The notes under the pieces: generated by a model
The model's database searches: none
Seen by the model: the letters and a program-made list of their open reading frames with translations, nothing else
Told to the model about the DNA's origin: nothing
Translations under genes and position numbers: made by a program
Shown: positions 17,792 through 18,822 of the stretch, in pieces
Numbering within the stretch: the stretch's first letter is position 1
Layout: each line of letters opens with the position of its first letter
Source: a phage
Reading direction: 5' to 3' (one strand)
Sequence record: PZ386961.1
Length of the DNA: 64,000 bases

Positions 17792-18379
17792 ATGAAACTG
17801 TTAAATATCAAAATCACTGGTACTCGTCCTTTCTTGAGCCATAACGATACGTTGTCAGACCCATTAAACCCCCTGACAAAATATCACAAGTCTCTGTCAA
17901 GTAAACGTAAAAAGACTGACGAAGACTATGCGCTCTTAGCAGAAAGTCAACTGGTAACTTCTTGTTACTACGATGAGCAGCTAGGTTTTGTTATGAACGG
18001 TGAGATGATTGAGGCTTGTATCAAGTCTGGTGCAAAACTCAACAAACTTGGTAAGGTAATTGACCGAGCCATTATGCTGACAGATGTAGTCTTCCAAATG
18101 ACTATCAAGAACTGTCCAGCAAACCCACAAGAACTTGCTAAGAATCCAGACTTTATCTACGCTAAGTCTGTTAAGATTGGTACAGCACGAGTTATGAGCT
18201 ACCGTCCAATCTTCCGTGACTGGTCTGTAGAGTTCGGTTTGATGTTCGATGAAGAGCAAATCACCCGAGAGGAACTTCTGATGGTTCTGGAAAATGCTGG
18301 TAACCTTTGTGGTGTAGGTGATTGGCGTCCACGCTTTGGTCGTTTTTCTGTAGAAGTTATTTCAGAAGGCAACGTTTAA
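17792..18379 (+). CDS. hypothetical protein (flanked by repeat elements)
   Basis: 195 aa from ATG 17792 with upstream GGAG; track ORF starts at GTG 17777. Confidence 0.5.
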
Positions 18380-18381
18380 TT

Positions 18382-18822
18382 ATGAATACAAAAGCATTAG
18401 CAGCAAAGTTTAGTTACGGTGACACTGTATCACACTCTGAGATGGACACCTTCTTAGGTATTGTGAAGCCAACTTATCAAGGTGACATTGTTAAGTACGA
18501 AGATGAAATGAAGGCTTATGCGCTTACACGTCTAAACCGACTTGAGAAGTTTATTGAGAAGCTTCTTAAAGAAGAGAAGATTTATCTGGTTGCTTCAATG
18601 GGTGTTGGTTATCGTGTGGTTGAACCTAAGCATCAAGCAACTATTGCAAAACGCAAAATGTCTGGTAAGATTGGTCGTGCTTTAAAGCAAGCCACTCAAG
18701 CGATTGAGAATGTGAACACTATGGCACTTAGTCATCAAGAACGTTCACGACTGATTGAACAGCAAAATCACTTAGCTGCTATGAAAGCTAATATTAACAA
18801 GCAACGCAGAAAACCTTTCTAA
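18382..18822 (+). CDS. hypothetical protein (flanked by repeat elements)
   Basis: 146 aa from ATG 18382, coupled to upstream gene. Confidence 0.5.
   Translation: MNTKALAAKFSYGDTVSHSEMDTFLGIVKPTYQGDIVKYEDEMKAYALTRLNRLEKFIEKLLKEEKIYLVASMGVGYRVVEPKHQATIAKRKMSGKIGRALKQATQAIENVNTMALSHQERSRLIEQQNHLAAMKANINKQRRKPF

Follow-up and report, generated by a model that had tools for sequence, protein, structure and literature searches.

A SUSP1-clade type II VIPR system in a Felix O1-like phage, with guides that match a satellite element of Escherichia coli

The 64,000-nucleotide stretch of phage DNA analyzed here (sequence record PZ386961.1; hereafter the window) belongs to a Felix O1-like myovirus (Felixounavirus) and contains 2 open reading frames (ORFs) enclosed by 2 pairs of repeat elements, all 4 of which lie on the plus strand. 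We are highly confident that this locus is a type II Viral Interference Programmable Repeat (VIPR) system of the SUSP1 clade, most likely serving the phage as a weapon against a satellite that would be parasitic on it. As a genuine member of this group, the locus is of an already known kind, though one known only from preprints of April to June 2026 (bioRxiv 10.64898/2026.04.26.720920 and 10.64898/2026.04.26.720927; hereafter the VIPR preprints), which describe VIPR as consisting of vipr, encoding a minimal RAMP protein, a vap accessory gene and flanking repeat RNAs, the vrRNAs.

The first of the 2 ORFs, vipr, encodes a protein identical to SUSP1 Vipr in 189 of 195 residues (96.9%). The profile of its family matched a single PDB entry, 36pp, "SUSP1 Vipr protein" (E 2.4e-80), and the window protein alone matched the same entry with an E value of 1.9e-126. 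With its RAMP RNA-binding fold, it is a minimal (approximately 20 kDa) RAMP homologue of the kind that defines type II VIPR. All residues reported in the cryo-electron microscopy paper among the VIPR preprints to contact G1, G2, Y3, and the skip base are kept (H17, K33, E71, M72, R138, C173, D177, W178, and R179), R138 and R179 being invariant among 41 homologues, and the 6 differences from SUSP1 Vipr fall outside these named contact residues. The protein belongs to PHROG 4652 (E 1.8e-96), a family of unknown function, and has 519 homologues of about 190 amino acids in phages, prophages, and some bacterial genomes. The second ORF, vap1, is identical in 145 of 146 residues (99.3%) to the SUSP1 gene located directly downstream of vipr, that is, Vap1, which is a predicted DNA binder that enhances repression in SUSP1 (VIPR preprints). 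It matches another family of unknown function, PHROG 5926 (E 7e-76), and a profile search retrieved 64 homologues.

The original prediction, made from the letters of the window, had described a series of promoter, elements, genes, terminator, elements, and promoter; each of these features could be located in that order, and the 2 ORFs have exactly the coordinates given to them (Table 1). It had also recognized no motif in either protein, in agreement with which neither gave a significant match in Pfam, NCBIfam, or PADLOC.

Table 1. Features of the VIPR locus and of other parts of the window mentioned in the text. Guides are written as successive NN dinucleotides.
Feature	Position	Strand	Remarks
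167-amino-acid ORF	14338-14841	+	overlaps 3' end of DNA polymerase gene
Small hydrophobic ORF, 48 amino acids (MFSTVILFILVVFVLSYVASKLL...)	17210-17367	+	between ligase gene and VIPR promoter
Sigma-70-like promoter (TTGACA-16-TATACT)	17374-17401	+	11/12 match; precedes vrRNA1, vrRNA2, vipr, and vap1; predicted function
AT-rich 5' leader hairpin (inverted repeat I3)	17432-17470	+	before vrRNA1 repeat tract; from element alignment
vrRNA1	17464-17582	+	17 GGY-NN units; 34-nucleotide pseudoknot tail 17549-17582; guide of 15 NN: CC CG GA AG TA AT CC AC AG AA AC AC AA AA AG
vrRNA2	17622-17715	+	12 units; tail 17682-17715; guide of 11 NN: CT GC AG CT CT CC CG AT AT GT GA
vipr	17792-18379	+	ATG 17792, stop 18379; 195-amino-acid RAMP-family protein, predicted to polymerize on vrRNA
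vap1	18382-18822	+	ATG 18382, stop 18822; 146-amino-acid Vipr-accessory protein
Intrinsic terminator-like hairpin (AGCCTCTTCGGAGGCT, then T-run)	18834-18849	+	3' of vap1
vrRNA3	18887-18985	+	13 units; tail 18952-18985; guide of 12 NN: AA AC TA CA AT AC AC TA AA GA GG AA
vrRNA4	19019-19122	+	14 units; variant tail (GGAAGG...) 19089-19122; guide of 12 NN: GT AC AA TA AG CA CA CA GA AA AA GA
Second promoter-like site	19142-19170		downstream of the elements
Cluster of 24 tRNA genes	46694-51914	-	typical of Felix O1-like phages

The 4 flanking elements, paired at approximately 17405-17740 upstream and 18825-19135 downstream of the genes, are vrRNAs, each composed of an AT-rich leader hairpin, 12 to 17 GGY-NN pentamers, and a 34-nucleotide tail. 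The underlying 5-nucleotide periodic GGT-NN core pattern occurs 41 times in the 64-kb window, against 0.03 occurrences expected, and all matches lie inside the 4 arrays. AT-rich leaders equivalent to that of vrRNA1 stand before vrRNA2, vrRNA3, and vrRNA4, and the terminator downstream of vap1 takes the position that in the other elements is held by the tail hairpin of the previous vrRNA. The tails can fold as an H-type pseudoknot: among 6 distinct tails, 9 of the 11 pairs display compensatory changes and 90.9% of the cells are paired, compared with 30% to 46% when the partners are slid. Across 8 related phages, GGY and the tails are constant and NN is variable. This architecture corresponds to that of the published vrRNAs, which comprise 9 to 16 YNNGG repeats with a conserved GGY, a hypervariable NN, and a constant 3' tail (VIPR preprints), vrRNA1 of the window being, with up to 15 to 17 units, at or slightly above that range; its outermost units, GA and AT, appear to be invariant in the parsed Felixounavirus-type loci and were excluded from the guide. 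Rfam searches at gathering and at permissive thresholds returned no family for the elements, the tRNAs being the sole Rfam matches in the window.

The resemblance to the SUSP1 system (type II; PDB 36pp) extends beyond the proteins. The SUSP1 vrRNAs have a promoter, leaders, and tails nearly identical to those of the window, the sequence preceding SUSP1 vrRNA1 being the same as that at 17374-17401, and both systems are located between the DNA ligase gene and matching downstream genes. They also share decoding with a 1-nucleotide skip and the class of target, an E. coli satellite. By contrast, the NN guide sequences are entirely different, SUSP1 has 1 vrRNA upstream and 3 downstream of the genes whereas the window has 2 and 2, and SUSP1 is a Suspvirus rather than a Felixounavirus.

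The guides (vr1 to vr4, from vrRNA1 to vrRNA4), taken as the NN dinucleotides without the outer, apparently constant units, were searched, with dinucleotides spaced by 0, 1, 2, or 3 wildcard bases, against 8 variants (loci L008 to L015) of a satellite carried by approximately 470 to 540 genomes and against the host DNA flanking these variants, 143 kb altogether; skips of 0, 2, and 3 and 200 shuffled guides served as controls. With 1 base skipped, vr1 matched at 27 of 30 positions (L009 7626-7669) within a 184-amino-acid gene heading the main gene cluster of the satellite, the site being in frame and the skipped base falling on the wobble position of the codon, whereas the best control scores were 20/30 for the other skips and 22/30 for shuffled guides. 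The best match of vr2 (20/22; L009 13560-13591; controls 15/22 and 17/22, respectively) lies in the satellite baseplate gene, that of vr3 (23/24; L008 7136-7170 and L013 6668-6702; controls 17/24 and 19/24) in an unannotated region rich in TTAACAG motifs, and that of vr4 (22/24; L015 11957-11991; controls 17/24 and 19/24) in a 109-amino-acid gene of the satellite from an O157:H7 strain. The NN identity thus amounts to 90%, 91%, 96%, and 92% for vr1 to vr4 (threshold, at least 80%). All top matches at skip 1 are inside the satellite, with only background scores in the host flanks of the scanned loci. Similarly, self-targets at skip 1 in the 64-kb window did not rise above background (21/34, 16/24, 19/26, and 19/28 for vr1 to vr4). 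At the one gene common to phage and satellite, vr2 matches the satellite allele at 20 of 22 positions but the homologous site of the phage itself (window 32249-32280) at only 15 of 22, a simple example of discrimination between self and non-self.

The satellite had been located by way of a remark in the VIPR preprints that the phage and the satellite have a baseplate protein in common. The corresponding window gene (31964-32761), located just downstream of the tape-measure gene, was used as the query, and a matching chromosomal "phage baseplate protein" gene was found in 474 of 5,426 complete E. coli genomes, with 92% to 96% DNA identity over approximately 70% of the length in the best-matching genomes, which suggests recent exchange with Felixounaviruses. 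The element, of approximately 10 to 12 kb, encodes a large serine recombinase, tape-measure and baseplate proteins, HNH endonucleases, and several small unknown proteins, in some cases also a Dam-type methylase or an AP2-domain protein (variants L008, approximately 3488-16370, and L009 to L015). It is integrated either inside yecE (DUF72) or beside tonB (between yciI and tonB) and is often interrupted by insertion sequences (IS5, IS2, and IS1203). The region targeted by vr3 (L008 5694-7785) consists of 2 kb without called genes, abounds in TTAACAG-type motifs (CTTAACAGAT and GTTAAACAG among others), and may be a regulatory or replication region of the satellite.

Two of the 8 satellites carry a vrRNA of their own with a phage-type tail (GGGTGGATGGTAGTAGCCAC...), at L008 6706-6775 (minus strand) plus tail and at L013 6240-6309; in L008, a strong promoter-like site (6852-6825, 11/12) and a terminator (6672-6649) accompany it. 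These satellites, in which vipr was not searched for, have no annotated vipr gene and may borrow or hijack the Vipr of the helper phage. Against the window, the guide of the satellite vrRNA scores at background (16/24); its best match, 21/24, is in host DNA between torZ and cmoB (L010 2127-2161).

In the published systems, Vipr co-purifies with the repeat RNAs and polymerizes with 1 protomer per GGY-NN repeat, each GGY being sequestered and each NN presented; the dinucleotides pair with double-stranded DNA with 1 target base skipped between successive dinucleotides, resulting in transcriptional silencing (bioRxiv 10.64898/2026.04.26.720920 and 10.64898/2026.04.26.720927). The experiments on SUSP1 comprise vrRNA expression, filament and triplex structures, and reporter repression, and expression, Vipr binding, and silencing have been demonstrated in SUSP1 and P. 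fulva; of the 20 guides of the SUSP1 clade to which a target could be assigned, 18 match the E. coli satellite phage, and no self-targets were found (VIPR preprints). Ribonucleoprotein formation, the skip rule, and silencing would be carried over to the window locus by analogy with this 97%-identical system. In such a scheme, the promoter at 17374 would drive vrRNA1, vrRNA2, vipr, and vap1, with vrRNA3 and vrRNA4 lying past the terminator, and each vrRNA, made as in SUSP1, would be an RNA of approximately 100 to 120 nucleotides in which GGY-NN pentamers are capped by a 3' pseudoknot. Vipr, as a minimal Cas7-like RAMP, would polymerize on this RNA, one protomer per repeat, burying GGY and presenting NN. 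The filament would bind double-stranded DNA by reading NN-x-NN-x... and would block transcription without cutting, with Vap1 as a putative accessory enhancing the silencing. All 4 guides appear to be aimed at the satellite in E. coli chromosomes, and because the tape-measure and baseplate genes of this satellite are related to those of the phage, an anti-parasite role is the most likely one: the satellite would exploit this phage, and its silencing would benefit the phage.

Several points weigh against this interpretation. The VIPR source papers are preprints (bioRxiv 10.64898/2026.04.26.720920 and 10.64898/2026.04.26.720927), and expression, processing, ribonucleoprotein formation, and silencing at the locus of this phage are read from sequence only. 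The promoter-like sites detected include none for vrRNA3 and vrRNA4, both located past the terminator. None of the 8 satellite variants matches any guide perfectly, and no single variant is well matched by all 4. The skipped base coincides with the wobble position for vr1 only, falling on codon position 1 for vr2 and position 2 for vr4. Finally, the self-target scan covers the 64-kb window, with approximately 24 kb of the phage genome outside it.

The organization of the locus also has support that is independent of the literature. Distant Vipr homologues, with 40% to 49% identity, are encoded by a metagenomic phage of 61 kb (L004) and by a prophage of Xanthomonadaceae (L005). In each case, the gene is immediately followed by a gene for a protein of 156 to 166 amino acids that is homologous to Vap1 (E 2e-14) and has the GxGY(R)VVPP..Q motif in common with it. 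Arrays of GGY-NN pentamers, in a local GC-rich dialect such as GGCNN and closed by a small hairpin, border the gene pair in both genomes. Because the gene pair and the arrays recur together at this level of protein identity in unrelated phages, the conservation of the distant loci argues that vipr, vap1, and the arrays are one functional module. The idea in the original prediction that the proteins and RNAs act together, for example as an RNA-binding protein with its cognate RNA, is supported by these loci and by the identity to SUSP1 Vipr; it holds for Vipr as the RNA-binding protein but not for Vap1, the accessory predicted to bind DNA. The arrays of the distant loci, at L004 5840-5925 and 7075-7230 and at L005 7033-7360, consist of GGC- or GGY-rich pentamers, and their tail hairpin (GGGCTGTAAACAGC or GGGCTACTTTGTAGC) is simpler. 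The prophage has 3 vrRNAs downstream of vap, each followed by extra covarying hairpins, and its vipr-vap pair is immediately preceded by a CI-like repressor in divergent orientation and by a small Arc-like ORF.

Other roles for the locus can be envisaged. The VIPR system could regulate genes of the phage itself or of the host during infection, the satellite matches being incidental. The satellite and the phage have genes in common, so that guides could derive from phage sequence, the published mechanism of transcriptional repression would suit regulation, and our scan covered only the 64-kb window of the phage genome and, of the host chromosome, the flanks of the satellite loci. Nevertheless, matches at skip 1 are at background both in the window and in the host flanks of the scanned loci, vr2 fits the satellite allele of the baseplate gene and not that of the phage, and the absence of self-targets and the predominance of satellite targets among the clade guides (18 of 20) in the VIPR preprints point the same way. 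We therefore regard regulation of phage or host genes as unlikely.

Still less probable is an anti-defence module directed at host immunity, for instance one that silences restriction or abortive-infection genes. Phage-inducible satellites of the PICI and PLE types often defend the host against the helper phage, and given such host defence, "anti-satellite" overlaps with "anti-defence". Moreover, VIPR can be reprogrammed to silence arbitrary genes (VIPR preprints). However, none of the 4 guides has its best match in a recognizable defence gene, the matches being in satellite genes of unknown function, a baseplate gene, and a non-coding region, and neither protein matches a PADLOC entry. The anti-defence cassette that the original prediction had offered as an example is thus not what we find in the usual sense of the term; the locus is an RNA-guided DNA-targeting system with guides at a satellite mobile element.

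The possibility that the repeats are double-stranded DNA sites bound by both proteins, such as origin iterons or centromere-like partition sites, is already largely refuted and retains hardly any probability: the GenBank note "possible binding site of StbAB" in phage KhF3 and the label "DR_4" in wV8, the AT-rich stretches adjoining the repeat tracts, the DNA-replication neighbourhood (polymerase, ligase, DHFR, and thymidylate synthase), and the location of the Xanthomonadaceae prophage pair where replication genes often occur would be in its favour, but neither protein matches a Stb-, Par-, or Rep-type family (Pfam, NCBIfam, PHROGs, and PADLOC), Vipr has a RAMP fold and shares 97% of its residues with a protein whose structure was solved in complex with vrRNA-type RNA, all arrays are on the transcribed strand, the covariation of the tail pseudoknot is a constraint of single strands and not of duplex DNA, and the NN dinucleotides, unlike iterons, decode to specific foreign targets. 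Clusters of Chi sites or of primase sites, DNA G-quadruplexes, and an mRNA leader bound by a TRAP-like ring, which were also considered, are made unnecessary by the identity of Vipr and the guide decoding.

The trp RNA-binding attenuation protein (TRAP), like similar oligomers, reads triplets (GAG/UAG) approximately every 5 nucleotides on RNA; it forms a closed ring regulating the bound mRNA. Vipr similarly reads a conserved triplet, GGY, repeated approximately every 5 nucleotides, but the folds are unrelated and the Vipr oligomer is an open helical filament in which the spacer bases read DNA. Vipr also resembles the backbone of Class 1 CRISPR-Cas systems, the Cas7/Csm3/Cmr4 RAMP filaments on CRISPR RNA, in which each protomer likewise covers a set number of guide nucleotides, a thumb flips out bases at regular intervals, and the guide is made of a variable part and a constant handle (VIPR preprints). 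In contrast to these, the VIPR guide is discontinuous, with 2 nucleotides read per 5 and the target read with a 1-nucleotide gap, and the effector is a single small, virus-encoded protein. Scans for repeats and tandem repeats detected no array of 25- to 40-nucleotide repeats and spacers at the locus, and no cas genes are adjacent to it (no search for Cas1 and Cas2 was made in the rest of the window). The authors of the VIPR preprints propose that VIPR predates CRISPR.

VIPR is a newly described form of RNA-based DNA recognition, in which a gapped, 2-in-5 guide code is read by a Cas7-like filament. The window adds no new kind of system to it, but an independent recovery of the module from sequence alone and a replication of the 1-nucleotide-skip rule on 4 guides that differ from the 4 of SUSP1 itself (the preprint counts 41 guides in the clade). 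It also maps the guides of this phage to target sites, gives evidence that guide repertoires are mosaic, and offers, in vr2, a clean self/non-self example. The annotation of vipr and vap1, called hypothetical proteins in approximately 130 phage genomes, can now be corrected. The arrays themselves bear misleading annotations in public records (KT184315, NC_012749, PP886229, and OR863361), as with "DR_4" of wV8 and the StbAB note of KhF3, and in the E9 and SeKF_63 records, spurious short "hypothetical protein" ORFs are called across the vrRNAs (window 17400-17790 and 18825-19135).

The guide repertoires vary between phages. Among 8 related loci, the number of vrRNAs per locus ranges from at least 2 to 4, the low counts being lower bounds, as the simple array parser missed at least 1 SUSP1 vrRNA. 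The guides are distributed as a mosaic: vr1 and vr2 of the window are common to its near-twin, phage E9 (vB_EcoM_E9), vr3 is common to ASO1B and SeKF_63, and vr4 is found exactly in ASO1B only, the SeKF_63 copy being 2 units shorter; phage wV8 has one guide in common with bumzen and another with KhF3. Related phages differ by whole vrRNA cassettes, and some copies of a guide by loss of 1 or 2 pentamer units or by single NN changes. For instance, vr1 of E9 differs from that of the window by 1 base (CG for AG), and the L009 satellite has CG at this position. Because guides are mosaic between related loci, turnover by recombination, slippage, and point mutation is suggested. Tentatively, whole cassettes might be swapped by recombination at the constant leaders and tails and the guides thereby renewed, together with slippage of repeat units and point mutation, in what could be a primitive, recombination-based "adaptation" that tracks the variation of the satellite.

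The wider neighbourhood of the VIPR locus is that of a Felixounavirus. Region 17200-19250 matched 231 phage records at 80% to 99% identity, nearly all of them Felixounaviruses of Escherichia, Salmonella, and Shigella, and the genes of the window include those for DNA polymerase, ATP-dependent ligase, DHFR, and thymidylate synthase as well as a myovirus tail module. Record GU169904.1 ("Staphylococcus phage SA1", 147 kb) contains this Felixounavirus region with 93.6% identity over 99% of the query, and 2 "Campylobacter" records also match region 17200-19250; all of these are probably chimeric or mislabelled entries. The small hydrophobic ORF upstream of the VIPR promoter may encode a small membrane protein, and an ORF is annotated at the equivalent position in SeKF_63. 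The 167-amino-acid ORF that overlaps the DNA polymerase gene displays, by eye, HNH-like and AP2-like motifs (HHLVWW...HIDGNRSNN and GYKGVH...RAAI) and probably encodes a homing endonuclease; a homing endonuclease is annotated in the corresponding neighbourhood of SUSP1.
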